Shown: positions 1-42,296 of the stretch, piece after piece
Layout: every line of letters begins with the position of its first letter
How positions within the stretch are numbered: the stretch's first letter is position 1
Notes under the pieces: generated by a model
Seen by the model: the letters and a program-made list of their open reading frames with translations, nothing else
Database searches by the model: none
Told to the model about the DNA's origin: nothing
Translations under genes and position numbers: made by a program
DNA from: Picochlorum sp. SENEW3
Taxonomy: Eukaryota
DNA: 64,000 nt
Direction of reading: 5' to 3'
NCBI GenBank assembly: GCA_034226945.1
Contig: CP120457.1
Coordinates: 620,001-684,000 of the forward strand

Positions 1-70
1 TGATGGACCCTTGGGAATTTGACGCCAACAACTGCCTTCTCCATTGCCTGGTTTTAGGCCTAAGTGGCAA

Positions 71-180
71 TCATGTATACATATGTATATATATAGGCCC
101 ACAGTTCTGGATAGGAGCGTAATCTGCCGGGGTCGGAACATCACGCAAATTGGTGTTGCTAGTGACGTAACCTAACCTAC
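71..180. repeat. Conserved non-coding element, copy 1 (candidate promoter module)
   Basis: tcatgtatac...gttctggatagg.gcgtaatctgcc.gggtcg..catcacgcaaattggtg...acgtaaccta.cctac matches 4861-4976. Confidence 0.85.
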
Positions 181-630
181 TTTTGCGTATGTCATCTAGA
201 TGATATCTCGTGCGAAAATTGCATTCATAATTCATACTCATAAACACCGCTATTCTCCGATAAAAAAATTATTTCGAATAGTGTGAAATAGTTCAATACA
301 ATTGTCGGGAAAGATTCAGGCTTTCCTTCAGGCGAAATTTATTCTTTTTAGGCGGAACGGTCCTAAGTTCTAGGTTTGTTGGGCACGAGTACGTGTTTCG
401 CTAGGTGGGCTACTGTGGGATTGGGTTTGTGCGGGTTCATGGAAATTATACACTTTTAAAAGTACATCATTAATTAAATACAGCAGAACACTCTGAATGA
501 CTGTTGTTACAGCACGCTGCCATTGTCCTTCTGGCCTATTCAGGCCCTCTGCGCATACCAAAACCAAATAGAATTCGTGTCTTTCTTCAGCCGTATTCAA
601 TCAATCTTCTGGCGGTTTGTGCAGGACGAG

Positions 631-1581
631 ATGCAAGATAAGGAGGCTGCAATTGACGAAGGGGTGGTGGACGTGGAGTTGCTGCTGCAGAATGGGGCCA
701 TCCCACCCAAGCTGGCAGACCGCATACGAGCAGCGGATGCCAATCAGGATGGGCGCCTCTCAGTGCTGGAGCTGGTGGAGGTGATGCGCAGAGAGCAGAA
801 GGCGGTTGAGGACCGCAAGCTATTCCGTAACATAATGTTGGCCCTTCTCGTTGCCGTGCTGGTGCTGATTGCTACGCTGTGTGGCACAGTCTACGGCATT
901 GTCAAGCTGACGCAGGAGGTGAATGACCAGGATGGTTTGCTGGTGTCAGCCTCCACTGGAGAGGTGATGGGCACAGGACTGGCACAGGAACCACTCCCTT
1001 TATCTCGCCTGTATCGTTTCGGTGACTCCTCCGAGTTGAGAAATGTGGAGAGTGTCATTGTCGCCTCGAAGCCGGACGAAGGCAGTGCTGATGGCAGTGA
1101 GGAGGTGCAAATGTTTCGAGTATCCAAAATCAGCGCAGTGCCGAACGTGCGCGCCACGGTATACACAGTCGACGGCAGCAAGCTAGAGGTAGACGACACA
1201 GGTGTGCGTGTGGTGGACCAGGATAATGACGTCACGCAGTCTTCTGGTGGCAGAAGACTTTCTGAGACTGCTCCTGTGCAGACTGGAGGGGACGGCACTG
1301 TGCCAGTTGACGCCTATGTGGTTGCCAACATCTCACCCCGTTCAAATGGATGCGACTCTAGTTTGGTAAACAGTTATAAGTGGTGCTTTGACAACTACTC
1401 GAGTGATAGTGACATAGCGCGTTGTCAAGCACGTGCCCAGCAAAGGTATCAGGAATGCAATGCAACCTCTTGCGACAGTTCCAGTTATATGCGAGCATAT
1501 AAGTGGTGTTTGGACAACTACTCGGGTGACAGTGACATAGCGGGTTGCCAAGCAAGAATGCGGGAAAGGTATAACTGTTAA
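631..1581 (+). CDS. EF-hand + transmembrane protein with C-terminal duplicated Cys-rich module (paralog 1)
   Basis: EF-hand-like loop DANQDGRLSVLE, hydrophobic segment IMLALLVAVLVLIATLCGTVYGIV, GGRRLS, two YKWCxDNY repeats. First ATG is 631; a possible acceptor tgcag ends at 624, so an upstream exon is possible. Confidence 0.8.
   Translation: MQDKEAAIDEGVVDVELLLQNGAIPPKLADRIRAADANQDGRLSVLELVEVMRREQKAVEDRKLFRNIMLALLVAVLVLIATLCGTVYGIVKLTQEVNDQDGLLVSASTGEVMGTGLAQEPLPLSRLYRFGDSSELRNVESVIVASKPDEGSADGSEEVQMFRVSKISAVPNVRATVYTVDGSKLEVDDTGVRVVDQDNDVTQSSGGRRLSETAPVQTGGDGTVPVDAYVVANISPRSNGCDSSLVNSYKWCFDNYSSDSDIARCQARAQQRYQECNATSCDSSSYMRAYKWCLDNYSGDSDIAGCQARMRERYNC
1351..1578 (+). repeat. Internal coding tandem duplication, ~120-bp unit x2
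   Basis: tgcgac at 1351 and 1471; tataagtggtg...gacaactactcg.gtga.agtgacatagcg occurs twice. Confidence 0.85.
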
Positions 1582-1883
1582 TTTTAGCAGGATGCTACAA
1601 AATGGCAGCCTTGTGCCTGCAGTTCCACATGTATGCCTAGCATGGAAAATATCCACGGGTGCATGTACGTATTTGTTGTAAACAAAACATTATTCGTATC
1701 CGTAAGGGCGAATCAAGTCGATTGTGGGATTTCTATTAGTGACTTCAAAAAAATCCTATGGGGGAGCGGGGCGCCTATTAATAATTGATAATTTGATATA
1801 AAGGTGCCAAGTTGGCATCCAATCGCCTCTTAGAACCTCTGAATCAATGCTTATGCATATCCTAGTGCACAAACATAATAAAC

Positions 1884-2285
1884 ATGGTCGCTTGGCTGAT
1901 CCTGTGTGGAGGAATCTTGACTGGATCACTGTCCATGGCATGTCCTCTGTACGAGCCTTGTGACCCAAAGCCCCGGCGAATTTTGCAAGGTGCTTCATCC
2001 CCAAATACTCTCATGATACACCAAGATAGACAACATCTGCATTTGGCATTCGATTTCACGCCAGATACGAGAGAGATGTCGACACAGTGCAAAATTCAAG
2101 CCTCTGACCATGTCCTTTCCATTCAATGTGATTTCAGCTGTTTCCTTCGCCCTAAACCCAATTTGTTGATTCGATATCTCAAAAAAGGCGTCAAATATGT
2201 TATATTGGTATGTATCTCACGGAGATTGGAAAATACTGGGTGGACCGGGACGGTGCGTTGCCTGTGGACGAGCTTGTGGAGGTGA
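1884..2285 (+). CDS. Possible small secreted protein or pseudogene
   Basis: Signal-peptide-like MVAWLILCGGILTGSLSMA followed by CPLYEPCDPKPRRILQ; the 3' end runs out of frame into a paralog fragment. Confidence 0.25.
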   Translation: MVAWLILCGGILTGSLSMACPLYEPCDPKPRRILQGASSPNTLMIHQDRQHLHLAFDFTPDTREMSTQCKIQASDHVLSIQCDFSCFLRPKPNLLIRYLKKGVKYVILVCISRRLENTGWTGTVRCLWTSLWR

Positions 2286-2331
2286 TGCGCCGTGAGATGG
2301 TGGTGTCCGACCGGAAGCTGTTCCGCAACAT
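2240..2331 (+). pseudogene. Decayed fragment of the EF-hand/TM family
   Basis: Closely matches 5627-5721 (gtggaccgggacgg...ttccgcaacat) with a 3-nt deletion; no flanking homology. Confidence 0.85.
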
Positions 2332-2795
2332 GTGGTATAATTTTCAGCAGAGTTTGCTTAATTATTAGTATCATAGGCGGTCGACGTCGACCCGAGTTCT
2401 CAAAATTTTCACACAAGCCATTTTACACAGGGGCCAATACCTTTTCGAATATTGCCAAAAATCCCCATTCTTGTTTCAATAGACATGGGATTTTTTCTTA
2501 CCATCTTTCCGATGAATCGGTCGAAATAATAAAATACGCCTCTCAGGTAAATTTGGTATTTAAGGAGGCCACCATCGATGGAAGGATCCTTTCTGTAAGT
2601 GCGACTGATCGATCGGTCATCGATGACGTGATATCATATCATCACCCTATATCGATATAAATCATCATATATCACACGCATCGCTCGTCCGCGCACCCAC
2701 TGCCTCTTCAAAATCAACAATTCACGGAGACTGGAAAATAGAAAAAGATATTTGCTTTGTGGTTGGATCCAACAAATTTGTCGCAAAAACCTAAC

Positions 2796-3305
2796 ATGAA
2801 TTTCTTGGCCTTATCTACGCTCTTGCTGCTTGCAACGCTGCAAAACACCCAAGCCCGTTCTTGCGTGGTCGGAGTGGATAAAATCGATATTGATAATTTG
2901 GATTATGAATATGGATCGCGCAAACTTCTCCCAAAATTCTGCCCGAAGGAGAAGTTTGAAGAGATGTCGCCACAAAAGGCAACCACTCAGCAGAGGAGTG
3001 AATCATTTGAGATGGTATCGGCGGCATTGAAACGCTTTAACGACGACACCAAAGAAGGGAGATGTGCGTATGGATTTGCGGAGGTCAATGTGCTTGACGG
3101 AGTTGGTTGTCGTCTGAAACCAGGCCAGAAGATGGATATGGGAACCAAAACCTATACAGCCACCAGGCCAAGCTCGTCAAGTGGCCGAAGCAATGGGTAT
3201 GCCAAAAAGTCAGTTGTCGTAGAATATACCTGCCTAGGAAACGCTGGAAATAAACGTTATGTGGCTCTGGCGTACGATGCCAAGTTCACGACGAAATGTA
3301 TGTAA
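2796..3305 (+). CDS. Secreted Cys-containing protein, unknown function
   Basis: Signal peptide MNFLALSTLLLLATLQNTQA; 6 Cys in the mature part; internal RKLL. Confidence 0.75.
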   Translation: MNFLALSTLLLLATLQNTQARSCVVGVDKIDIDNLDYEYGSRKLLPKFCPKEKFEEMSPQKATTQQRSESFEMVSAALKRFNDDTKEGRCAYGFAEVNVLDGVGCRLKPGQKMDMGTKTYTATRPSSSSGRSNGYAKKSVVVEYTCLGNAGNKRYVALAYDAKFTTKCM

Positions 3306-3922
3306 GTTGTCCATGAGCAAGCATTACTCAAGCAGGCCACAACTGTGGTACCTGATCACCAGAATGGACTTCACTCTCTTGTGAATGTGAACCATTTGCG
3401 GCGCCTGAGTGCATTATCCCATGATCTCCACAATGTTGCGTACTTTTTTTTCTCGTTGTAATATACAGCCTTCGTTTTTATTCTTTAGAGTTGATGTATC
3501 CTGATCGGAGATACAGCAACGATCGACCAAATATTCATGGATATTGCTGATCAGCACGAGAGAGTCCACAGTAGTCCAATCATCACCATGTTGACTGCCA
3601 CCTACTGAACGAGTTTTTCGGCCTAATGAGGCATATGACAAACCAGAGAGGCTTTTCTAGAGAAATTTGACAGGAGAAATTCGCACTTTATCACCCATCC
3701 ACGCCATACTACGATTGCGTGAATTTGAATCTGTCATTCTCAATGACATCAGCCAAGGCTCGTTACATAATTATGTAAATGAAATCATGTGAACGACATT
3801 CTACATACTTAATGTCTCAAATGAGGATGAGATAGACAGAGTTTGACACATCATACACCTCTTGTTTCAGATTCTTGGCTGCCCCTGTCCACAGCCCAAA
3901 GTAGGGAACAATGGTATTGCAC

Positions 3923-4752
3923 TCACAACAAAAAGATAGCGGCAGTAGCAAAGATTGAGGCGAAAGCACCACCGATGGAACGTATGCCAGAGCCTGGAGG
4001 TGGATTTGGAGATGAATCCAGAGATGGGCTTGGTGATGGCCAATCTGCGCTTGGGTCATGCAACAAGAGACCAGTTGAAGGGAAGAACACCTGGGAGCTC
4101 TCTCCGTCGGGAGAAGAACAAGTAATAGGAGGTAGAACAGTGACGTTGTTGACCGATCCAGCAATAGAAATACCACGGGGGTTGGCATCATCAGTCTCAA
4201 GCAACGTAGCTGGAGAGCCATCAACCTCAAACCTCAAGGTACCTCCAGCAATATCCGTCGCAACCTTCGCATCCTCTCCTTCAACTGTGGCAATATGCCT
4301 CGAGAGAATAGAGCCTAAGAGATCAGTGTCACCCAGCAATTCTTCAGCCGTCATGTTGAAGCTGTCTTGAGCAACATAATACAGATCATCAAAAGCGCTA
4401 TCCCTGGGCATGATGAATACCAAGTTTCCTTCTGGGGCATCACCAATGTCAACATTTGCAGTGGCGTTAAAAATAGCAGAGAGATTCGAAAAGGATGGAG
4501 CAGCCAAAATTTCATATGCTTCGGCACAGAGAGGGATCTCTCCAATAGTGGTGGCTCCAGCTCCACACAACAGGGCTACAGGTCAAAATGCAATGGTGTC
4601 ACACCGATCGTAACCGAACACGTGTCGGCCTCTGCGATATCACCGATAACTATGTATGGGGGTATATATACACGTTGAGCAACACAAACTCCGTCCCGAG
4701 TGCAGATTTGTCACGCACCCAACGTCAACAAAGCCACGTATTCTTTCATCAT
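3923..4752 (-). CDS. Fasciclin (FAS1)-like, probably GPI-anchored cell-surface protein
   Basis: Exons 4752-4719 and 4575-3923; splicing the GTGCGT..CTGTAG intron creates signal peptide MMKEYVALLTLALLCGAGA. FAS1-like VFIMPRDSAF and ILSRHI, Pro/Ser linker, hydrophobic C-terminus. Confidence 0.65.
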
Positions 4753-4860
4753 GCAACCGGTTTGCAACAATATCCTTGACAGCCTGGCTTGTTGGCGAAG
4801 GAAAATGCAAAATCTTTTGAGTCTTGTTGTATGTGAGCCCATGCGCTGCTCCAGACAGAC

Positions 4861-4976
4861 TCATGTATACATGTATGGATCCACGGTTCTGGATAGGTGC
4901 GTAATCTGCCAGGGTCGAACCATCACGCAAATTGGTGCTTTTATAAAAAACTAATTAGTCACGTAACCTAGCCTAC
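4861..4976. repeat. Conserved non-coding element, copy 2
   Basis: Matches 71-180; lies between the divergent FAS1-like and EF-hand/TM genes. Confidence 0.85.
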
Positions 4977-5431
4977 CTGCGTCCGTTATCTCATCAGGCC
5001 TTCCATCGAGCCGGATCGATTGGCAGGAATCTTGCACGAGGGCACGCCGGCAACCCTGGCGCGGAATATTGTTATTGAAAAGATAGACTATAAATTTGTT
5101 TTCCAATTGTGTTTTGGGCAAACAAACCATCCATAAAGGCGCGTTCTTTGATGTGTCGTTACGCACGCAGGCGTGTGGGCTTCTGTCCCTGTAGTGTTGT
5201 TGAGCAGCAACTGGACCCCATCATTGGGGTATTGCTGTCTTTTGTTTCAAATATAACATACACATGATATGATACGATCGTACTTGATTGCTTCGTTGCT
5301 GGTGTTTGCAGACACTTGCTCACTCGCACGGTCTGAAATACAACCAAGGGTGAGAAGAACATTGAGAAAAGGACACCGAGGCAGAGATCAGGCATCGGGC
5401 CCTGGACCAGAAGATTCGACAGTGGTACGAT

Positions 5432-6355
5432 ATGAGTAGTCCCTACCCGGCACAAGGTGATGGTGACAAGGATGGGCCCACGCCTGGACTGGGAAAGTCT
5501 TCCGTTACACCTCCCCCTGTGGCATACGAGAAGGGTGATACCGTGGTGGACGTGGAGTCATTGCTCCGCTCCTGCAGCGCCAAGGGCCTGTCTGCAAAGC
5601 TGACGGACCGCATCCGGGAGGCGGATGTGGACCGGGACGGCGTGCTGTCTGTGGACGAGCTTGTGGAGGTGATGCGGCGTGAGATGCAGGCGGTGTCCGA
5701 CCGGAAGTTGTTCCGCAACATCCTGCTTGCCCTTTTTGTGGCGGTGCTGGTGCTGATTGCAACTCTATGTGGCACAGTGTATGCCATCGTGGACTTGAGC
5801 AAGGAGGTGAAGAATGACAATGGGGTGCTGGTATCCTCGTCCTCTGGTGATGTCATGTCAACAGGCTCTGCCCAGCAGACGGTGACTGTTGGTCCAGAGC
5901 TGCTGGCTCTGCTCGACTTCCCCGAATCACTCAGCAATGTTCACTCATTGGTCATTCCTTCCATGGGAGGTGATGAGACGACGGTGTACAAGATTGCGAA
6001 ACTCATCTCGTCGCCTGGCACAGGTTCCATGAATATTGCCACAGTGGACGGCACACTGCTGCTCGTGAACCAGTCTGGCGTGTACGAGCGCTCCGAGTCC
6101 GATGAATACATGCCTGTATTTGAAATGTCTGATAGCCGTCGTAAGCTGCTGATCGACAGTGTCGAGCGACCAGGTTCCCAAGGAGCTCCAAGTGTGGTTG
6201 TGAGCGTGGGATCTGGTCCCATAACACCCAGGTACACCCGGCCCATAACACCCAGCCCATGCGTCAATTGTTATAAAGCGTGCTATGATAATTACGAAAA
6301 CGCCGGTGATGTCAGTGATTGTTTCGGGCGATGTCATAAAATACATTATTGTTGA
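5432..6355 (+). CDS. EF-hand + transmembrane protein with C-terminal Cys-rich module (paralog 2)
   Basis: DVDRDGVLSVDE loop; TM segment nearly identical to paralog 1; SRRKLL; CVNCYKACYDNY...CFGRCHKIHYC. Confidence 0.85.
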   Translation: MSSPYPAQGDGDKDGPTPGLGKSSVTPPPVAYEKGDTVVDVESLLRSCSAKGLSAKLTDRIREADVDRDGVLSVDELVEVMRREMQAVSDRKLFRNILLALFVAVLVLIATLCGTVYAIVDLSKEVKNDNGVLVSSSSGDVMSTGSAQQTVTVGPELLALLDFPESLSNVHSLVIPSMGGDETTVYKIAKLISSPGTGSMNIATVDGTLLLVNQSGVYERSESDEYMPVFEMSDSRRKLLIDSVERPGSQGAPSVVVSVGSGPITPRYTRPITPSPCVNCYKACYDNYENAGDVSDCFGRCHKIHYC

Positions 6356-6850
6356 TCAACAGTACTTTGCTGTAATCAACAGCAACAAGTGCATACAGAC
6401 TGCGCAGGGCATGCTGTTGATTGTGAAGACATCATCCAAGCAGGAATGAAATCAATTGCAGCGCACCCAAACCGAAAATATTAACAATACCAAATACTGA
6501 TACTAGTGGGTATTGTTAAATAATACTTGTACAGATATGAAACATTGGTACATGAAATTGCTTGTATTCTCTGAAATGCCATCAACATGGATGGATGCCA
6601 CAAAGGGCATGTTTGATGCTAAAAAACACTGGCCAAACTAATCAATCCAGAACCAGGACACAATCCAACCAATGCTCATTGTAATCAAAATATAGCAGAA
6701 CCACCAAGCAACCCAGCATTTGAAGTGTGTTGGGGGAGATTGCAATGCAGAATAAGGCTGGCCCATACAAGGACATGTGGGAACTAAGCAAGGAAAGCAA
6801 AGTGCACGTGTAATAATTATTTGGTATGTATGTAATATCGTAGTAGGTAT

Positions 6851-9690
6851 ATGGATGATGCTGGACATGATGGTAGCGAGGCTACCAGGAATTCGACAAG
6901 GCCTTTGGGGAGAGGGTCAAGAGATTTCTCGACACTGGTCCGTGGGAAGAGGAAGCGGATTTGGGATGTTACAGAGTCTATAGATTACACACCATTTAAC
7001 AATCGGGTGGCGCTGAGGCGATATGGGGGTGTGGGGGAGCAGTCGAGGAGTATTTATGGATTTTCCGGTAGGACGTTTTTTACCCTACTGGCGACATTGT
7101 TGACTGGGATTCTGATTGGGATAACTGGGAAGATGTTGGAGGTTGGAATTGATGTTGGGGTGGGCCTGCGGAATAGATTGGTGATGGGGTTGTTGTTGGG
7201 GCAGCAGGGGACGGTCAGCTGTGACCTGGCTCTGGTGGGGCTGAGCGTGGTGACGGTGGGGGTGAGTGCGAGTGCGGTGCAGTGGTTGGCGCCTGGGGCT
7301 GCTGGGTCTGGAGTGAGTCTTGTGATGGCGTTGTTGAATGGGAATGATATCGCTGGGTTGTTGACGCCAATGGTGTTTGTGGTCAAGTTGGTTGGGACGG
7401 CATTGTCTCGGATGGCGTGCTTGGCATTGGGGCCAGAGGCTCCTTTGGTGCATTTGGGGGCGTGTGTGGCGTCAATTGTGTTTTATTCTGGTCAGCGTGC
7501 GTATCGTGCATCAACCTTTTCATGCGATCTTGTTGGGTTGCTTGAACCAATCATAATAACAAAAACAATGACCATGATGCAGGTATTGTGGATTTGAGGA
7601 GGTTGCGAGAGAGGAGGGAGATTTTGAGAGTGACGAGGGATCCAGTGTTTTCGAATGCGAGTCTGAGGCAGTTGATATCGGCTGGGGCGGCGGCGGGTAT
7701 GGCAGTGGCTTTTGGGGCGCCTGTAGGTGGTGTGCTGTTTGCGCTTGAGGAGGCATGTAGTGTGTGGTCGAAAAAGACTGCATGGAGGTGCTTGCTGGCG
7801 ACAGCGATTGCCGTGTTTTCAATGTCTCAAATATTTCCGGCGTTGGGTGGGGGATATATTCTGTCATTTTCTGGTATTTATCCTCTGTCTGACAGACAAT
7901 GGTTGTTTCAGTTGCCATTTGTGGTGTTTATGAGTGCTGTATCTGGGCTCTTGGGTGCGTTTTTTAATCTCATGCGCCGAAAGATGCAGCGGCATAGGGT
8001 ATCAAAGCGAAAGCATATGCTGAGAGTGTTGGAGGCATGTGGCGTCGCATTGGTGTCTTCTTCAGCATTTTTATTACTTCCCAGGCGGTTTGGTCAGTGT
8101 CTTGATCTGCCACCAACGTGGGAGGAGAGCCAAGTATTACAGTATGATTGCCCTGCGGGACAATATAATGACCTTGCGACGGCCCTCTTCGCAAGTGCTC
8201 CAGTGACGATTCGGAGTTTCTTAGGTCTAGGTAGCGAAAGTGAGCCTATAAATAGGATTTGTACGGCATCAATGCCCTGTTATTACACGCTGACTGCACT
8301 GATTTGTGTGAGTATGACGTATCTGGCATTGATGGTACTATCTTCTGGGTTGGCTGTGCCAGGAGGGTTGTTCATGCCTTCTGCAATGGTTGGTGGAGCC
8401 CTCGGAGCTTTCTTTGGCATTTTGATCAATCCTATTGTGCCCATGTCGTGGGACATTCAACCTGGAGTGTATGCGATTGTTGGAGCTGCAGCAATGCTTG
8501 CAGCAGTCTTCAGAAGCAGTGTGTCTCTGGTTGTCATTCTGGTGGAGGGCACGAGGGGTATCAATTTCCTTCCGGGGATATTAATTGCTGTGATTATATC
8601 AAATTTTATTGCTCATTGGATTCATCCAGATGGTATTTACGAGTCTGAATTGGAAGTGGATGGACGTGTCTTCTTCTTACGACAGGAACCTCCTGGGAGG
8701 TTGAGGAGCAAGACTGCAGAGTCATTGATGGCATCCCCTGTGGTGGGTTTGTACGAATTTGAATCCGTTGCTCGTGTGCTTCAGGTGCTATCTTCCACAA
8801 CGCACAATGGGTTTCCTGTATTTGCATCAGATCGCTCTGGCAGTAGTGCACGGCCACGTCTATCTGGGTTTATTTTGAGATCACAGTTGCTGATTTTATT
8901 GGGTGAACAGGTGTTTTGTGATGAAGAGGGTGATTATTTGAGTCATCCTTCTGGGATGGAGCAATCAGAATATGAGGAAAGGTTGGATGCATTGATGCAT
9001 CATGCTGTTCATGGAGGAAGTGAGATTGTTGATGCTCTGGTGGAGGATAGTGATGATGAGCAGGATGGGGATGGTGGGGAATTCTCTGTGCCAAAAATCA
9101 TGTCAAAAGCTCTTCAGATAATGGAGGATCTGTCAAGAGAACCTTCATTTGCTGATATACTATCTGCACAGGAGAATGGAAATGGATCGACATCGCGGGA
9201 GTTTTCCTCGTCGAGGCTGACAGAGATGATGGCAGATTCGTACATCAATTTGTCGCCCTTTATGGATTTGGGGATGATCACAGTGAGGCCAGATACCCCC
9301 GCTGCCCACGTGCATCAAATGTTTGTCACAATGTCTCTTCGACACTTGTGCGTGACAGATTCCTTGAATGGAATTCTTGGTATCGTGACACGAAAAGATT
9401 TGGATAGAGCCGCGGGGCATGGATGGTGGAGGAGTAATAAGATTGCCCCAGATCCTCCAAAGGACACTGCAGTGCTCCGATCCACAAGTTGGTTCCAATC
9501 CTCCCTTCAGGCTATTGCTGTGCCACCGCGCCGTATGCTTTCTGATTTACTCCAAAGTCTATCCCCGAGTCCTTCCATGGAGCGCACTGTATCATCGCTC
9601 GCAGAACAACATGTACATCCATCTTTGGAACATTTGTTGCAGGGAGAAGAGTCTCCCCAAGATAGTCTAGAGGATAACGTGTCACAGTGA
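6851..9690 (+). CDS. CLC: CLC-family chloride channel/antiporter with CBS domains
   Basis: Exons 6851-7496 and 7583-9690; GSGVS, GPEAP, AFGAPVGGVLFALEE, GLFMP, GIY; CBS motifs THNGFPV and GIVTRKDL. Confidence 0.93.
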
Positions 9691-30193: not shown

Positions 30194-33100
30194 TTACTTT
30201 TTATCGAATGATTTCAAGAGATGTTTGATGACTGACTTTCCTCTGAAAAGATTGAGTCTTCGTATGCGTTCGTTTGATAAGTGGCAGTTGTCTGAACTCT
30301 GGCCCATTGGGAGGAGCAAGGCAGGAGCGTGGAGAAGTTTCTCCAAGGCCGATGCCACAGGCATGGTGCCTCCTTCTCTAACAAGGAGTGGTGTCTCTTT
30401 CCACACGTCTTGAATAGCGCTCTCTGCGAGTTTAACAAGCTTGCAGTTTGGATCTGCTTCCCACCAGTCTCCGACTGAGTGGACAGTGATTTTGATCGAA
30501 TTGCCGGATCGAAGCTTTGCGAATTCATGCTTGAGATGATCTGTAAGTCTTTTGATGATGGATTCAGAATCCTGGTTTGGTACAAATCGGACCGACACTT
30601 TGCCCACAGCGGCTCTGGGGATGACTGAGAATCGTGTCGGGCCAAATCGATAGTGTGCTGTGTCTTCGTCTTCTGCTGTTCCTACTCTCACGTCGACAAC
30701 ACTGAGGGTCGGCTGGCACCAACGCGCCCATAGCAATTCTTCTTCTGTTCGACCTACGGTAAGTTCCTTGACACCGAGGTATGCACGGTATCCTTCGAGG
30801 GAGAATTCGTTCGAGTCCTCCAGTCGCTGCATGGCAATGTCAAGACAGCTCTCTTTGACATCTTCATAAAATCCTGGAACACAAACATTGCTTCTCGAGT
30901 CAACAAGCGATGCTAGTAGTTTTGTAAGATCTGCTAAAGGCTCTGAAAATACGCCTCCTTCGTTTCCAGAATGCAAGTCTTTTGCAGGACCCCGAATCTC
31001 CACGCTCATGTTCATCATGCCCCTCATGCCATAGGTGATGCATGGATGTGCTTCGCCAACCCACAAGGTGTTTGAGATGAAAATCGCTTCAGTTCCCTCA
31101 AACCAACGAATGTTATCTTGCACGGCTTCTTTGAATCCTATACTTCCGTTTTCTTCCTCACCTTCAAACAAAAATGCAACATTCACTGGCATTTTCCCCA
31201 TGCCATCTTCACTGTATCGAAGTTCTTCCAACATTTCTCGCACAGCAAATATAAAAGCTAAAATCGGTCCCTTGTTGTCGCTCACACCTCGACCAATGTA
31301 GTACCCATCCTTGGCATGAAGCTCGAATGGATAATGGCTCCAATCTGGTTCCATGGCAGGCTGGACATCATAATGCCCATAAAAGGTGATGGTTTTCAAT
31401 GCAGGATCATTGCCTATACGTCCCATAACCAGAGGATTTTTTCCCTCCATAGTTGGTGCTAATTTCACCTCTGCTCCAATGCTTTCCAAAAGACGAAGAA
31501 GAAATTTCGCTCCCTGAAAGCAGTCCTGCTTTCTTCCTGGATCAGCACTCACAGTCTGAATTTTGATAAAGGAACGAAGAGATTTCTCAAACTCTCTCTC
31601 AATCCTTGCTGATATAGCAGCACTGGTTGTGTCAAGTTTGCTTGGGACTCTTCTGATAATATCAGGTGTCTTTGACCTAATGATTCCATTTTCTTCAATC
31701 TCTAATTCATCATCACCATCACACACACATGCATCATGCAGTGAAATCTCCCCATCGTCAGAGCACACAATTACATATGGCGGGGATATCACACATGCCA
31801 TACACGGTGGAGCATGATAATAAAGTGAATTAAAGCCTATAATCCTTGGTATAGCCTCAAACACCTTGAGGCATGACAAGGTCTGTAAATCCCAGAGACG
31901 CACAGTCCCATCAGCAGATGAACTTGCAAACATGCCCAATCCTTCGTGTGCCGATATGCTGAGCACCGATGATTCATGACCACGAAGAATATCACAACAA
32001 ACCCACGTTTCTAAATCCCAAACTCTCACCACACTGTCCCTCCCTCCTGACACCAGAAAACCTTTGATTCGAGTTAATGCAAGAACTGAGCCACGGTGAC
32101 CACGCAACACCTTTTGAAATGATAAATCCTCCGCACTCCATACTCGTATCGTTGAATCATGACTTCCACTACAAACGACATCATCACAAACAGACAAACA
32201 TGTAACAGAAGAACAATGCCCCTTGGTTGCAAACGTTGTACATATGGGGTCAACCTTGTTCTTCTCCAATGACAGAGAAAACTTGTCTAGGTCCTTATCT
32301 CGTCCAAACAATGGATGCCTCAACTTTTTCTTCTCTATTCTGTTATCCCGTGACGTATTCAAAAGCGACTCTGGCGAATACTTTTTAATCCTGCAGTCCA
32401 CACTGCCCACAAATGCTGCTCCAGACGCATCACACGCCAATGCTGTAATGGATGCTTTCGAATTCGTTTTCACGACAGATATACACTCAAATGTTTTCAA
32501 ATCCCATAAACGAATCGTCTCAGCACCAGCACTCATCAAATATTCCCCAGCAAAATCGATTCTTCGAATAGGGTCTCTGTGCCCCTGAAGAGTCTTGATG
32601 CATGTATAATCTGACAGCGCCCACACACGGATCAACCCATCCGCACCGCCACTAAATAAATATTCCTCATTACTCTTGACTGTCGTCACCGGACCTCGAT
32701 GTCCACTCAACACATGGCAAGGATCTTGCATCGATCGAGGCGTCACAGCATCATCCAACCTCAAATCATTCTCCCCTCCACCCCTAGGAGTCGTCCCACC
32801 AGATCCCGACTTCAAACTCCCACTCCTCAGAATGCCTTTCTTACACTTTCCTGAATGTGCTGCGTCGAGTCCTCCATCCACGAGTTTCTCATCCACAGTC
32901 TCCAAACACCTATACACCTCTTCATTATCAGGATGCTCCCCTTCGTTCGCAAGCCACGCCTTGAACACAGTCAGAATCCCTTTACTATCCTTGGATATCA
33001 CTAAAGCTGTATTTGGCTCCACAGCATTCCAATCAGACGTACAATCAGTCACAGGCTCTGATGCCACGAGACACACCCGTGTCTCAGTCCCAGCATACGA

Positions 33101-33964
33101 CAACCCATAACTACCCTCACCAATCACCGCGCCACCACGCTTCCCAGTGGCACTTCCAGACGGCTGAGACGACGAATGAATCGTCTTGGATGCTTGAGAC
33201 GCCAAAGAAGTCGCGTGACAGGCCTGAGATCTGTCATACGAATACCCCTCTGCGTAATACAGCGACGCAGGAATGGTATCTGGATCATCAGCATACCTCG
33301 TCGCCACCGTCGTCACCCCATCCGTCACAACAAAGTTCAATAAACTCGTTCCTTCAATCCCATTCTCTTTTTGCACCCGAGTGATTGTCGACACAGTCGC
33401 CTGTATCGCCCTCAACAGCACTTCAGGCGTCTGCCTCTTCTTGGTATCAGGAAGATGATGCAGAAACAGTCCAAAGCACACCGCACTATCACTATGAAAA
33501 CTTTGAACAGCATTATATGCTTCATCATTCATAATGCTAATTAGCTGCCGACGAATATCCAGAAACCCCGCCACAACACCATTATGCATGAAGAGATAAT
33601 TCTCATGAGCAAAAGGATGACAATTCTGCTCACTCACCGGCATCCCCGGGTACGCCGCACGCACATGAGCAAAAATAAGACCACTCTCTAACTTCATCGC
33701 AAGCCTGTTCAGATTATCATTGTTCCACGCTGGCGTCACTGATGTAAATGTACAAGGAGTGGCATCGTTCATGGAACAGGGCGAGTACCACCCTATACCA
33801 AAACCATCTCCATTCAAATTTCCATATCCCAAATGACATGGTAGGCTACTATCATTCCTCCGCTCCCGTGCCTCGTAGCTTTGCTTGATAATTGACCGAG
33901 AGGGCCACAGCACGACATCCGCAACCAAAATTTCAGGCCCAATATAGGCCATCAACCGACACAT
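30194..33964 (-). CDS. Fusion: class II glutamine amidotransferase (Dug3-like) + WD40 + M20 peptidase (Dug2-like)
   Basis: Single 1256-aa ORF; MCRL, NGDGFGIGWY, FAHVRAA, NCHPF, FMHNG; ~7 WD repeats; YGHYDVQP, GRGVSDNKGP, EGEEENGS, REGGT, HLSNER. Confidence 0.92.
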   Translation of the reverse strand: MCRLMAYIGPEILVADVVLWPSRSIIKQSYEARERRNDSSLPCHLGYGNLNGDGFGIGWYSPCSMNDATPCTFTSVTPAWNNDNLNRLAMKLESGLIFAHVRAAYPGMPVSEQNCHPFAHENYLFMHNGVVAGFLDIRRQLISIMNDEAYNAVQSFHSDSAVCFGLFLHHLPDTKKRQTPEVLLRAIQATVSTITRVQKENGIEGTSLLNFVVTDGVTTVATRYADDPDTIPASLYYAEGYSYDRSQACHATSLASQASKTIHSSSQPSGSATGKRGGAVIGEGSYGLSYAGTETRVCLVASEPVTDCTSDWNAVEPNTALVISKDSKGILTVFKAWLANEGEHPDNEEVYRCLETVDEKLVDGGLDAAHSGKCKKGILRSGSLKSGSGGTTPRGGGENDLRLDDAVTPRSMQDPCHVLSGHRGPVTTVKSNEEYLFSGGADGLIRVWALSDYTCIKTLQGHRDPIRRIDFAGEYLMSAGAETIRLWDLKTFECISVVKTNSKASITALACDASGAAFVGSVDCRIKKYSPESLLNTSRDNRIEKKKLRHPLFGRDKDLDKFSLSLEKNKVDPICTTFATKGHCSSVTCLSVCDDVVCSGSHDSTIRVWSAEDLSFQKVLRGHRGSVLALTRIKGFLVSGGRDSVVRVWDLETWVCCDILRGHESSVLSISAHEGLGMFASSSADGTVRLWDLQTLSCLKVFEAIPRIIGFNSLYYHAPPCMACVISPPYVIVCSDDGEISLHDACVCDGDDELEIEENGIIRSKTPDIIRRVPSKLDTTSAAISARIEREFEKSLRSFIKIQTVSADPGRKQDCFQGAKFLLRLLESIGAEVKLAPTMEGKNPLVMGRIGNDPALKTITFYGHYDVQPAMEPDWSHYPFELHAKDGYYIGRGVSDNKGPILAFIFAVREMLEELRYSEDGMGKMPVNVAFLFEGEEENGSIGFKEAVQDNIRWFEGTEAIFISNTLWVGEAHPCITYGMRGMMNMSVEIRGPAKDLHSGNEGGVFSEPLADLTKLLASLVDSRSNVCVPGFYEDVKESCLDIAMQRLEDSNEFSLEGYRAYLGVKELTVGRTEEELLWARWCQPTLSVVDVRVGTAEDEDTAHYRFGPTRFSVIPRAAVGKVSVRFVPNQDSESIIKRLTDHLKHEFAKLRSGNSIKITVHSVGDWWEADPNCKLVKLAESAIQDVWKETPLLVREGGTMPVASALEKLLHAPALLLPMGQSSDNCHLSNERIRRLNLFRGKSVIKHLLKSFDKK

Positions 33965-34754
33965 TGGTATCTAATATCAATATAATTCTAAATGATGGAC
34001 ATTCTTGGCACTATTCTTGAGCAATACCAAGAAGACAAGACCAAGAAGGGCATGCATTTACATCTTCCCATCAAAGATACTATTTGATGGGAGACGAACA
34101 CATCCTCTCCGCGGTCGTTGTGAGACGTGTCCAGGCAGGTCATCTGAGATTGACAGACTCCGTCAAACGAATAACCGATTACAGTATTATACCTAGACAA
34201 CGTGTCTAGTAATACTTTTCAAGTTCTCAGTCGTCGTGACTGATCATACGAGCTAAGGATCGCCCGCACCGAACATCCTCGGCGGGTTCGACTAGAAGGT
34301 GGGTACCACTATGATGGAGACTTTCTTTTGCTTCTATTCATCTTTATTGGCATAATGGTGGGGAGGATGGAATGTATGGGTGTATTCCTGGCATTCACGC
34401 GCGGGGTGGCAGAGGGACAGAGCACTGTCCCATCTCTGTCAACCTTTGTGAAGAATGATGGCCATCTATCTCTATGATTCATATGATAAACAAGAATGGG
34501 AGATTGCGCGTGCCTTTCTCACGCATGGGCGAGCTCGATCGCGCCATGCGTGGGAGGGTTGTGAATGCCAGAAATTCATCCCTGTCTTGCCATGCCTCGG
34601 TGGGAGGATTGCGGTATCTCTTTGCGACTTTATTAGTGCATTGGTTGGAATTCATGTGTGTATGTGTGGGTGTAGGGTGTGCCTGCGACTGGCATTCTAG
34701 AAGGATTTGACGCGGCAAAGACCTGGTGTGCCACCAGAGTGGAAATTGACGGCG

Positions 34755-39510: not shown

Positions 39511-39878
39511 TTTTGACTGCGAAACCCAAAAAATATTTTTCAGGAAATCGTATGCATATACATACTTATGTGACGCGGCAATTGTACAGAAAAGAATTTG
39601 AGAGGTACGCAATGACCATCGCTGCTGAGATTCCGCCCATGGAATCTCTTTTTTCGAGGGCCGGCAATATTGCCCTAGGGAATATAGGTTGCCATGAAAC
39701 CCCACGAGCCACGGGCAGACGGCCTAGTCAGTATACATGCAGTTGGCACCAAAACACTAGACGCAGAAATTATTTTTTTTGAAAGTTGCAATGGTTTAGG
39801 GTTTCCTTGTGGAGTAGCGCTCCTAAATGCCATCGATGCCGTGATATCACCACGGCCAGTAACCCGTGAGTCTGCGTT

Positions 39879-42296
39879 ATGTTATGTCACCTTTGCCTTG
39901 TGCTGATCGCCATTGCCGTCGGTGTTCAATCCCGAACTGGTGCACCTAACCCAAGGAAATGTTTTCCAAGACCATCATCCCTTTACTTTAATGTATCGCG
40001 AGTTGACAAGACGATTTTCATGGTCCCAGTTGGGGACGTTGTGGATTGCCTAACCAAGGTCCGGATTGACATGGATTTTGCCCTTGATGCCGTTGATTCG
40101 TATAATAATATTCTGCAAGCTGGTTATGGATACTACTATTATAGCAACGATGTCCTCGAGTCCAGTCCAATAGAGAATCCATTCGGATGGGAAATCTTCA
40201 ATGGGACATCTGGGGGTCAGGTGGACTATGACAAGGAGTTTCAGGCACTGAGGGAAGACATCGAGGCCAAGGGTCATGCTGATGGGATGCTGGCCTACAA
40301 GATCAATGATATTTTGCTCCGTGCGAAGGATGGGCACACGAGTGGTATCGAATTGGAATTGGACATTTTGTCATTGCTTGATGAGGACCCAGGGGCTGTT
40401 CGGAGCTGGCTCTCGCTCCAAATGGACGAGAGAGCAATGGCTCGGGTCGTGAACAATATACATGTAAATAGCAGCATATTTGATGCGGAGATAAGAGTGG
40501 TGAAGTCAATAAATGGAGAAAATCCCCTATCATACCTTGACGAACTTGTCTCCAATCCTGCAATAGGGAGTCAATCACAATACAAATCTCCAGGGGTACG
40601 GATGAATGTATTTTTAGATAACTGCAACTTTACCACTCCAATTCATAAGTGGACTGGTGTTTCTTTGGGTGATATATCGAATCTTCCAACAGGCCTCATG
40701 CTGGAGTATGAGGACGGGTTCAGTTCAAACTGGACTTTTGTTGTTTGGGTTCCTGAAAAGTACATGTATTCTACTCCTGAAGAAATTGGAGAAACACTGA
40801 CTCGAGAATCTCCTTTATACTCTGGTTTCAAAGAATTCAAAGATGGGAAGCGAATGATAGACTCTCAGAGAGAGAAGCTGACCAGGAGCCAGATGGTGAA
40901 GAGGAACCTCATCATCCATGACGAACAGCTGGGTTTTAAGCAGTTCAGGGCAACGTCTTTGGCCACAGGGAAATTTGCAACATATTCAGGGTACTTGGTG
41001 CGAGAAGACACAATGGTCTGGAAATTGCCATCTTTTGCTGCAAATGAGGATGCTGAAGACTTGGTTCACTTTTGGAACGCAATGGCAGCAGGAGCTCAGA
41101 ACAAGAAGATAGACAAGCTCATCATAGATATTTCGAATAATGCGGGGGGATATCTTGATAACGTCGTGGTTTGTTTAAAGTTATTGTATCCAGATGCTCG
41201 TACGGAAGATGTTCTCCCTATTAGCAACACTCGAATCACAGATGTAATGTACAATATGGACAGGATTGCCACAGCTGCCCTGGATATCAATCAGAAAGTC
41301 AGCTGGAGTAATGTAACCAATGCATTATTCAACATTTTCTCTGAAAGAGAAAGGATACAGGCTCTCTCGTCGATGTGCACACCATTGCTGAACTTTAAAG
41401 CACTGACTCAGGGAACTGATGTGGAAAATCTTGGAAACCTTGACTGGTATTCTCTGGGATCTACAATGAACTCCTCATCTAATTTATGTGAAAAAGACAT
41501 GACTATGTGGAGTGAAGCAGATGCAATCGAGTTTTTTGAAGCAACTTTTGCCTCCTTTGTCCCACCATGCTCGTCTCCAAATATAAGCTCTGACAATTGC
41601 AAGGTTGAAGTAATAAAAAGTATTCAAAGCGGTATACCTGTGCCAGTAACAAAAGGATACCCGTACGATATCTCAGAATTTGACTTTCTTGGCGACATGG
41701 ACGAGTATTTATCACGTGGAGAGATTCTCAAAAGCCCATTCAAGTCCTATGTATTGTTTTCCAACTCAGCTAATGTTGGAAGTGGTGCACATTTATTCCT
41801 AATCACCCTTCTGAGCCTTTCGCATAAGTACAAAAGTCTTCAGAATCTAACAACTGTGTCCATGGGGTGTATGGGAAATCAATTGGAGTGCGCTATGGCA
41901 TCTTTTGCTGGTCAAGTAGTTCGAGGATCTCCATGGATTCGAGAGATCTATGGGCTTTTTGCTGTCAGTGGGTCTGTGAAAACCATAATTGAGATCGATA
42001 GTATGTTGAAACACTCCAGAGTCACGTCAGAGGATCTGGATGCATACACGCGAGCATACAGGAAGCTCCAAGACAGTCTCCCTATGCCTCCTGCACTATC
42101 TTCTGATCTACCACAGTTTGCTTCTCGGCCATTTTTTTATAATGGCATCCCACCGAATAGCACCCTCCCAGTAGAGTATTTCAATATCCCTGCAAATAAG
42201 TATATACCATTCTGGCCTCCACCCAGAACCACGACATTTGAGAACCAGGCCTCACTGGGATACATTTATGACAAATTGTTAACAATGTTTCCATGA
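39879..42296 (+). CDS. Secreted S41-peptidase-like protein
   Basis: Signal peptide; KDGHT, VKSINGE, LIIDISNNAGG, VGSGA; intronless, 805 aa. Confidence 0.7.
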   Translation: MLCHLCLVLIAIAVGVQSRTGAPNPRKCFPRPSSLYFNVSRVDKTIFMVPVGDVVDCLTKVRIDMDFALDAVDSYNNILQAGYGYYYYSNDVLESSPIENPFGWEIFNGTSGGQVDYDKEFQALREDIEAKGHADGMLAYKINDILLRAKDGHTSGIELELDILSLLDEDPGAVRSWLSLQMDERAMARVVNNIHVNSSIFDAEIRVVKSINGENPLSYLDELVSNPAIGSQSQYKSPGVRMNVFLDNCNFTTPIHKWTGVSLGDISNLPTGLMLEYEDGFSSNWTFVVWVPEKYMYSTPEEIGETLTRESPLYSGFKEFKDGKRMIDSQREKLTRSQMVKRNLIIHDEQLGFKQFRATSLATGKFATYSGYLVREDTMVWKLPSFAANEDAEDLVHFWNAMAAGAQNKKIDKLIIDISNNAGGYLDNVVVCLKLLYPDARTEDVLPISNTRITDVMYNMDRIATAALDINQKVSWSNVTNALFNIFSERERIQALSSMCTPLLNFKALTQGTDVENLGNLDWYSLGSTMNSSSNLCEKDMTMWSEADAIEFFEATFASFVPPCSSPNISSDNCKVEVIKSIQSGIPVPVTKGYPYDISEFDFLGDMDEYLSRGEILKSPFKSYVLFSNSANVGSGAHLFLITLLSLSHKYKSLQNLTTVSMGCMGNQLECAMASFAGQVVRGSPWIREIYGLFAVSGSVKTIIEIDSMLKHSRVTSEDLDAYTRAYRKLQDSLPMPPALSSDLPQFASRPFFYNGIPPNSTLPVEYFNIPANKYIPFWPPPRTTTFENQASLGYIYDKLLTMFP

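Follow-up and report, generated by a model that had tools for sequence, protein, structure and literature searches.

Bacterial polymorphic toxins, like cathelicidin and conotoxin precursors, join a constant export or pro-region to a hypervariable, exchangeable C-terminal product. BRICHOS proproteins (Bri2/ITM2B, chondromodulin and polychaete antimicrobial-peptide precursors, e.g. nicomicin) consist of a cytosolic N-terminus, a transmembrane (TM) or signal region, a lumenal domain that is conserved, and a C-terminal client that is released by proteolysis (PMC10182729, PMC6265681). Plant site-1 protease (S1P, SBT6.1) cleaves RRxL-type sites in the early Golgi and thereby promotes secretion, with CLEL/GOLVEN precursors and pro-pectin methylesterases as substrates that need the cut to be secreted (PMC7162652), and RXL, as processed in diatom silaffins and SAPs, has been proposed as an algal precursor-processing signal (PMC5647440). 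Little is known about the secreted peptide signals and defences of unicellular algae, the papers found by our searches dealing mostly with Chlamydomonas amidated peptides and diatom wall proteins. Here we describe two genes, P0001 and P0002, in a stretch of 64,000 nucleotides from the green alga Picochlorum sp. SENEW3 (C5:620001-684000, hereafter the window; the genome comprises 13.85 Mb in 14 contigs). They belong to an apparently undescribed family in which, as predicted, an EF-hand-like N-terminus and one TM helix precede a cysteine-free beta domain in the lumen, and an R[RK]x?L site separates this domain from a C-terminal segment that we call the cargo. Our preferred reading, held with moderate confidence on sequence comparisons, is that a constant type II carrier would be cut by S1P in the Golgi and release an exchangeable cargo for recognition or defence.

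The two window genes, their open reading frames (ORFs) and the elements predicted within them are as follows.

631..1581 (+): paralog 1 (P0001), intact ORF for a 316-residue type II precursor
736..771 (+): P0001 EF-hand loop DANQDGRLSVLE, the only canonical one in the protein, predicted to be cytosolic
832..903 (+): P0001 TM signal-anchor, residues 68-91
904..1251 (+): P0001 lumenal carrier domain, cysteine-free, beta-rich, without Pfam match
1252..1263 (+): P0001 predicted cleavage site RRLS
1351..1458 (+): P0001 cysteine module 1, C-x10-C-x12-C-x10-C
1471..1578 (+): P0001 cysteine module 2, internal duplication with 83% DNA identity over 75 nt
5432..6355 (+): paralog 2 (P0002), intact ORF for a 307-residue type II precursor
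5624..5659 (+): P0002 EF-hand loop DVDRDGVLSVDE
5720..5791 (+): P0002 TM signal-anchor, residues 97-120
5792..6136 (+): P0002 lumenal beta-rich carrier domain, holding an NQS sequon
6137..6151 (+): P0002 predicted cleavage site RRKLL, lying within a loop that is modelled as disordered
6260..6352 (+): P0002 cysteine cargo C-x2-C-x3-C-x12-C-x3-C-x5-C, modelled as a helical hairpin

An EF-like loop, a TM segment, a basic site and a cysteine module had been pointed out in both paralogs by an earlier note made from the DNA letters (the original prediction), and all four were found where it had put them. That note let the feature begin at position 523 and called the genes a tandem family; the ORF of P0001 in fact begins at 631, and the genes lie 3.85 kb apart with other genes between them. 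P0001, a sequence identical to which is present in the protein collection, and P0002 share 42% identity over 283 columns (E 3e-57), and 21 of the 24 residues of their TM segments match. The near-invariance claimed for this segment holds within the P0001/P0002 subclade and fails across 19 genome paralogs, where one glycine is the sole invariant TM residue. The cysteine module is present twice in P0001 and once in P0002, with all three pairwise alignments beating 5000 of 5000 shuffles. This confirms the count given for the YKxCxDNY module; as a family-wide feature it did not stand up, being found in three of the 24 genome paralogs, and its cysteine pattern differs. There are four cysteines per module in P0001 (spacings 10-12-10 and 11-12-9) and six in P0002, and in both P0001 modules the two outer cysteines of the C-x3-C...C-x3-C hairpin are gone. 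Such a joint loss is expected if those two cysteines pair with each other, as we assume by analogy with the connectivity of alpha-hairpinins.

A search of the genome with the N-terminal core returned 27 places, namely 24 full ORFs and three fragments. The family profile, built from 19 of the 24 genome paralogs and including the cleavage site, matched 930 protein clusters at E 0.001 and 174 at E 1e-10; of the 930, some share of the weaker matches may be EF-hand-only, and the best 150 were analysed as relatives. Close relatives with a named organism are all Picochlorum proteins. Among 30 representatives looked up, five clusters carry an organism name: Gonium pectorale, Pycnococcus provasolii, Cymbomonas tetramitiformis, Chlorella sp. 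A99 and the choanoflagellate Choanoeca perplexa, the last with the whole layout and a site further downstream, for which contamination is possible. In the ESM Atlas, core features scored 0.93-0.97 against unnamed or EF-hand-labelled clusters, mostly of diatoms, haptophytes or chlorophytes, which is a lead obtained without alignments; the cysteine module had no feature match there, and all structural rows were below the bar.

The original prediction knew of no described family with this layout, and the searches agree with it. Pfam assigned no family to the carrier in the window proteins or in 122 relatives, NCBIfam had no match for P0001 or P0002, and a PDB sequence search with the core profile found only calmodulin-type EF-hands at profile positions 15-44 among the best 60 of 272 matches. 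Three candidates were rejected: P0176, from a search for fused forms, is an unrelated poly-EF-hand protein; an Attractin match had an E-value of 2.4; and XopAW matches covered the EF-hand only and were far below the cut-off. Searches of the open literature, which leave subscription journals outside their coverage, returned no description of the family. In the excerpted text of two Picochlorum genome papers the carrier family is not described (PMC6141220, with ten unnamed expanded families and mention of a down-regulated EF-hand family; PMC11092101, where EF-hands are not mentioned).

The predicted type II signal-anchor topology is strongly supported by sequence statistics, as the original prediction had proposed. 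The TM segment was found in 119 of 119 scorable relatives, with more K/R residues before than after it in 117; sequons occur at 1.41 per 100 residues after the TM segment versus 0.20 before it (reversed motif, 0.74 and 0.32), and a signal-peptide-like start was found in none of the 100 relatives scored. Of the cargos with at least four cysteines, 53 have an even number of them and 11 an odd number; 105 of 109 relatives have no cysteine in the 100 residues before the site. These cysteine and topology counts refer to related sequences, not to independent events. Of the outcomes that the note had named as speaking against itself, none was seen: neither a full-length match to a characterised family, nor a cytosolic C-terminus, nor an unconserved basic motif.

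In the AlphaFold model of P0002 (126-row alignment, pLDDT 78.6, pTM 0.49), an EF-hand-like head is followed by one unbroken helix (residues 74-124) running from the loop through the membrane, a beta-rich domain most confident at about 170-230, a disordered loop bearing the site (237-247, pLDDT below 50), and the cargo as a helical hairpin (confidence about 60-75). The modelled head resembles EF-hand pairs (VIA-align, best Z 7.2, rmsd 2.1, 57 residues aligned). For the lumenal domain modelled alone, the best VIA-align match was a VirK-family protein (Z 6.3, rmsd 3.4, 86 aligned), a match so weak that it shows neither novelty nor kinship. The lumenal domain had no Pfam match at E 10, Foldseek against the PDB gave no match at E 0.001, and a fold search of BFVD returned one weak row. 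A carrier-cargo complex predicted without alignments scored 0.00, which is evidence neither way.

The carrier family works like BRICHOS proproteins and is not a member of that family, since the defining cysteine pair is absent: BRICHOS domains need a conserved Asp and two cysteines, whereas the algal carrier is cysteine-free and without Pfam match. BRICHOS precursors, described from metazoans, have furin-type sites, the algal family S1P-type sites together with an N-terminal EF-hand and whole-domain cargos. No BRICHOS chain was among the fold-search matches listed, which does not exclude the BRICHOS fold, a central sheet with a helix on either side. The plant S1P substrates, to which RALF23 presumably also belongs, each comprise a fixed product family without detected homology to the carrier, whereas the algal carrier bears dozens of unrelated products. 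Silaffins and SAPs function in biosilica and are made with a signal peptide and an N-terminal pro-peptide, and no carrier in common with them was found. To the bacterial toxins and the cathelicidin and conotoxin precursors the resemblance is one of logic; no homology to them was found, and neither a toxin domain nor an immunity gene was recognised in the algal family. The family appears to be a variant of the type II precursors that convertases process.

In 23 of the 24 genome paralogs an R[RK]x?L site lies about 100-130 residues past the TM segment, the remaining one, L017, lacking both site and tail. For the relatives, the end of the beta domain was placed with a motif-free profile; 21 of the 150 representatives fall short of it and five end too early, leaving 124 scorable. 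The site was found 5-34 residues past the beta domain in 109 of these, compared with four of 124 when a stretch of the same length upstream was scored and with an expectation of 5.6 from shuffling, and in 61 of the 68 relatives scoring above 100 bits on the motif-free profile. Its consensus is G-R-R-(R/K/L/S)-L, while furin-type R-x-K/R-R occurs in five of 104. An S1P orthologue encoded in the genome (C10:68984 region; E 5e-251 against human MBTPS1) itself contains GGRRSLL, which aligns close to RRLL, the autocleavage site of human S1P (PMC8019017); an S1P-like enzyme is also present in Chlamydomonas (PMC6313938). The conserved basic motif of S1P type that the original prediction had noted is therefore borne out. 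As in S1P substrates, the sites are lumenal R-x-aliphatic-x motifs in an accessible loop, a likeness that is partly circular because the sites were chosen by R[RK]x?L. From these data we infer, with good support, that S1P cuts the family precursors at the RxL site.

The combination of type II topology and an S1P-type site in the lumen also characterises substrates of regulated intramembrane proteolysis (ATF6/bZIP28 type), in which the S1P cut would license an intramembrane cut and the cytosolic fragment would signal; S1P does activate membrane-anchored transcription factors (PMC7162652). The nearly invariant TM glycine would suit such a role. We nevertheless regard it as highly unlikely here, as the cytosolic part comprises about 55-100 residues in the genome paralogs, Pfam finds in it an EF-hand only and no DNA-binding domain, and diversification lies entirely in the lumenal tail. 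As candidates for the Golgi site-2 protease that such signalling would need, three M50 proteases were found, which look plastid-type from their sequences, although an intron-split gene could be missed.

Comparison across the family showed the predicted cargo to be a swappable slot on a constant carrier. The genome tails, 40-166 residues long, comprise 14 with 6-12 cysteines in several spacings, two with two cysteines and seven with none, most of the latter being Ala/Gly/Val-rich; more widely, 104 cargos of at least 25 residues fall into 89 BLAST groups. Pfam searches of the 122 relatives named four cargos (Hint in Gonium, ubiquitin, DUF285, and I29 with the start of a papain domain), the rest being unassigned to any family. 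The carriers of P0071, P0075 and P0080 are 97-99% identical while their cargos are unrelated to one another, and among 126 carrier pairs that are at least 75% identical, cargo identity is below 40% in 82. Between L013 and L015 no TM or lumenal codon differs and the cargos are 52% identical, and between L003 and L004 synonymous divergence (pS) is 0.03 in the N-terminus, 0.58 in the lumenal part and 0.98 in the cargo. For L001/L002 the nonsynonymous to synonymous changes number 23:3 in the cargo versus 13:19 in the carrier (p 3e-4). The carrier of P0001 groups with L008 and its module resembles those of L001 and L003, a mismatch that fits a swap and also a shared ancestral hairpin. The earlier claim of a disulfide-rich C-terminal product is thus upheld as to a lumenal, probably disulfide-bonded product, but not as to a single cysteine-rich module, the cargos ranging to cysteine-free tails and whole domains. 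In P0080, a metagenome record, the ubiquitin-like cargo ends in LRGG and is predicted to be lumenal, an odd location for ubiquitin.

The P0002 cargo matches the alpha-hairpinin motif C-x3-C-x(4-20)-C-x3-C (PMC11591084) with a modelled helix-loop-helix, whereas the P0001 modules do not, and the motif is limited to four of 23 genome cargos and five of 104 others. The repeated modules of P0001 are a further likeness to alpha-hairpinins and vicilin-buried peptides, and the top structural row in the ESM Atlas, below the bar, was Vicilin_N. Alpha-hairpinin and vicilin precursors have a signal peptide or are vicilins, whereas the algal family has a signal-anchor and no cupin domain, and the net charge of its cargos, unlike that of alpha-hairpinins, is near zero.

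The same variety could in principle stem from birth-and-death drift, in which the tails would be linker or wall material under little constraint and their diversity would come from relaxed selection and from noise in gene calling. The genome has three copies that are broken and one truncated partner, and these would agree with such drift, as would some low-complexity tails and some spurious-looking metagenome tails. We consider this quite improbable, because cysteine counts are even (53 versus 11) with cysteines lost in pairs, folded domains are recognisable as cargo, and cargos are 92-100% conserved in matching records (e.g. L020/P0045, L016/P0034, L027/P0035). Polymorphism fits equally well with variable surface display, in which the cargo, cut or uncut, would stay on the anchored carrier or the wall as a polymorphic determinant, adhesin or decoy towards viruses, grazers or non-self. 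Residues 254-259, just past the site, are drawn as a beta strand in both models and the best carrier fold match spans them, a neighbouring gene is fasciclin-like, and some of the cargos look like repeats or adhesins (DUF285). However, the strand is of low confidence (pLDDT about 60-70), the sequence past the site is unconserved across the family, and the carrier has no cysteine to hold the cargo covalently, so that retention at the surface appears rather doubtful to us.

The N-terminal loop plausibly binds calcium. A canonical 12-residue loop is present in P0001, P0002, 11 of the 24 paralogs and 81 of 100 representatives, and calcium binding is probably ancestral. Each window protein has one canonical loop, which stays below the Pfam cut-off (P0001, EF-hand_5, 20.2 bits against 25.9; P0002, EF-hand_1, 23 bits against 25.4), while two to three EF-hands above the cut-off are found in the distant P0155, P0156, P0160 and P0164. 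In a carrier tree of 38 rows (the 24 paralogs and 14 chosen relatives), the loop was lost from 13 of the 24 intact paralogs in two events, in a clade of 12 (support 98/98) and in L020. Paired canonical loops kept family-wide, a feature of EF-hand sensors, were not found. The cytosolic calcium sensor that the original prediction had put at the core of the system is not supported in that role, given the single loop per protein and its loss from 13 paralogs; as the loop-less paralogs are intact, predicted calcium binding is not required.

Calcium might still gate release, if its binding to the cytosolic EF-hand controlled ER-to-Golgi transit or exocytosis and so timed the appearance of the cargo. 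The frequency of canonical loops, the distant members with several EF-hands, and a modelled loop-exit helix that is continuous with the TM helix beneath a head resembling EF-hand pairs would all suit this. On the other hand, the 12-paralog clade and L020 keep TM segment, site and cargo without a loop, the window proteins have a single loop below the Pfam cut-off, and the EF-hand of a mirror-image gene family described below is lumenal because it comes after a signal peptide. We therefore think calcium gating unlikely.

Under the preferred reading of Golgi cleavage and cargo release, the single TM helix would act as an uncleaved signal-anchor that leaves the EF-hand-like N-terminus cytosolic and the remainder in the ER lumen, a step strongly supported by sequence statistics. 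The cysteine-free beta domain would be glycosylated and would tether the cargo during folding and disulfide formation, probably as a folding or sorting aid. In the Golgi, the algal site-1 protease, which is encoded in the genome, would cut RxL in the disordered loop and the cargo would leave the anchor. Tandem duplication and recombination near the site replace or rapidly alter the cargo, as the sequences show. Finally, and this is the weakest step, the cargos may serve extracellularly for recognition or defence by making specific contacts with proteins, rather than by lysing membranes as cationic peptides. The EF-hand would be an optional accessory.

Several observations weigh against this reading. 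Fifteen of the 124 scored relatives have no site in the scored window, both site and cargo are missing from L017 and P0042, the RRLS of P0001 places Ser at P1, and L009 misfits the S1P-type pattern used. As the search profile included the site, weak matches favour site-bearing relatives, and neither the relatives nor the pairs are independent. The apparent excess of pN over pS in the cargo rests on two to three synonymous changes. Many of the distant cargos were called as genes on metagenome contigs, and since some tails resemble read-through of unspliced DNA (e.g. P0067, P0079, P0172), the diversity estimated for cargos beyond the genome is too high. In charge the cargos are neutral to acidic (median -0.9 per 50 residues; +3 or more in 11 of 99) and so do not point to any one class of activity; for the same reason we rejected a reading as cationic antimicrobial peptides.

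The results suggest that the carrier family is a reusable way to secrete varied signalling or defence molecules. The carrier profile together with one cleavage site predicts the N-termini of hundreds of candidate products in green algae and probably other protists, the substrate range of S1P would extend to algal peptide release, and an unassigned lumenal pro-domain fold would be added. Picochlorum is used in biotechnology, and a carrier that takes cargos from a few dozen to more than 500 residues is a candidate secretion tag.

The P0001-P0002 pair forms the end of a 20-kb cluster on C5 with six intact paralogs. Further features of the locus, and genes related to its broken partner, are listed here.

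1..70 (-): broken 5' end of a head-to-head mirror gene (Diedel-RRxxL-EF-hand-anchor type), cysteine module missing
160..180 and 4956..4976 (strand not assigned): ACGT-core element upstream of P0001 and P0002, respectively
2225..2335 (+): decayed fragment of a family copy (L026), from EF loop to DRKL, without start or TM segment
2796..3305 (+): P0003, predicted secreted protein of 169 residues with hydrophobic N-terminus and its own SRKLL site, without Pfam match
3923..4582 (-): fasciclin-like ORF, divergent from P0002 (Fasciclin 14.4 bits, below cut-off)
C5:602876-603619 (-), 610783-611535 (+), 613309-614055 (-) and 616461-617207 (-): mirror-image precursors
C3, C7 and C12: further mirror-image precursors (L034, L036-L038)

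Four family copies of the C5 cluster stand head-to-head with a mirror-image gene, which encodes a signal peptide, a variable cysteine-rich module, an RRxxL-type site, an EF-hand domain and a hydrophobic C-terminus. All eight intact mirror-type genes examined have the RRxxL-type site, and the three tested matched Pfam Diedel (PF13164) with 28.7-34.0 bits (cut-off 21.3) over about half of the model. The mirror partner of P0001 has lost its cysteine module and ends at window position 70, with intact mirror copies upstream on C5. Diedel is a cysteine-rich extracellular immune-response protein of Drosophila that also occurs in insect viruses (PMC3307722), and its match in a green alga may merit a study of its own. 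A further ten paralogs face another member of the family head-to-head, a member that is broken in two cases, which brings the total to 14 of 24. These arrangements perhaps come from about four events, and a genome this compact probably has many divergent gene pairs. In one such pair, L017/L020 (C8:258679-260862), L017 has the EF loop without site or cargo and L020 the reverse.

An ACGT-core element, which we take to be bZIP-like, lies 440-475 nt upstream of five of the six C5 paralogs, inverted in two; an ACGT core occurs within 700 nt of 10 of the 24 paralogs, against 0.23 expected per 700 nt, the copies being related. A broader and more speculative proposal, to which we give limited credence, is an ancient protist chassis for polymorphic cargos, in which the anchored carrier with its unassigned lumenal fold and recombination-prone S1P junction would carry whatever products a lineage requires extracellularly (disulfide hairpins, hydrophobic peptides, Hint, ubiquitin-like, DUF285 or protease domains) and would be co-regulated with the head-to-head Diedel precursors to form fast-evolving self/non-self or anti-virus/anti-grazer loci in microalgae. 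In their logic, such loci would be the eukaryotic equivalent of bacterial polymorphic toxin systems. A scan of metagenome loci found no relative.

P0003 was duplicated jointly with P0002, and further copies were seen, one 99% identical at C5:603939 and three distant. Directly downstream of the family gene, the window encodes a CLC chloride channel with a CBS domain (6836-9690, +). P0030, a public gene model from another Picochlorum that came up in the search for fused forms, joins a family gene to the CLC channel; we regard this fusion as a probable annotation artefact, given that the two are separate ORFs in the window. Elsewhere in the window, an ORF of 1258 residues (30194-33970, -) combines a class II glutamine amidotransferase, WD40 repeats and an M20 peptidase, presumably recalling the yeast glutathione-degradation subunits Dug3 and Dug2 fused in one chain, and an 808-residue predicted secreted protein (39870-42296, +) has a partial match to Peptidase_S41.

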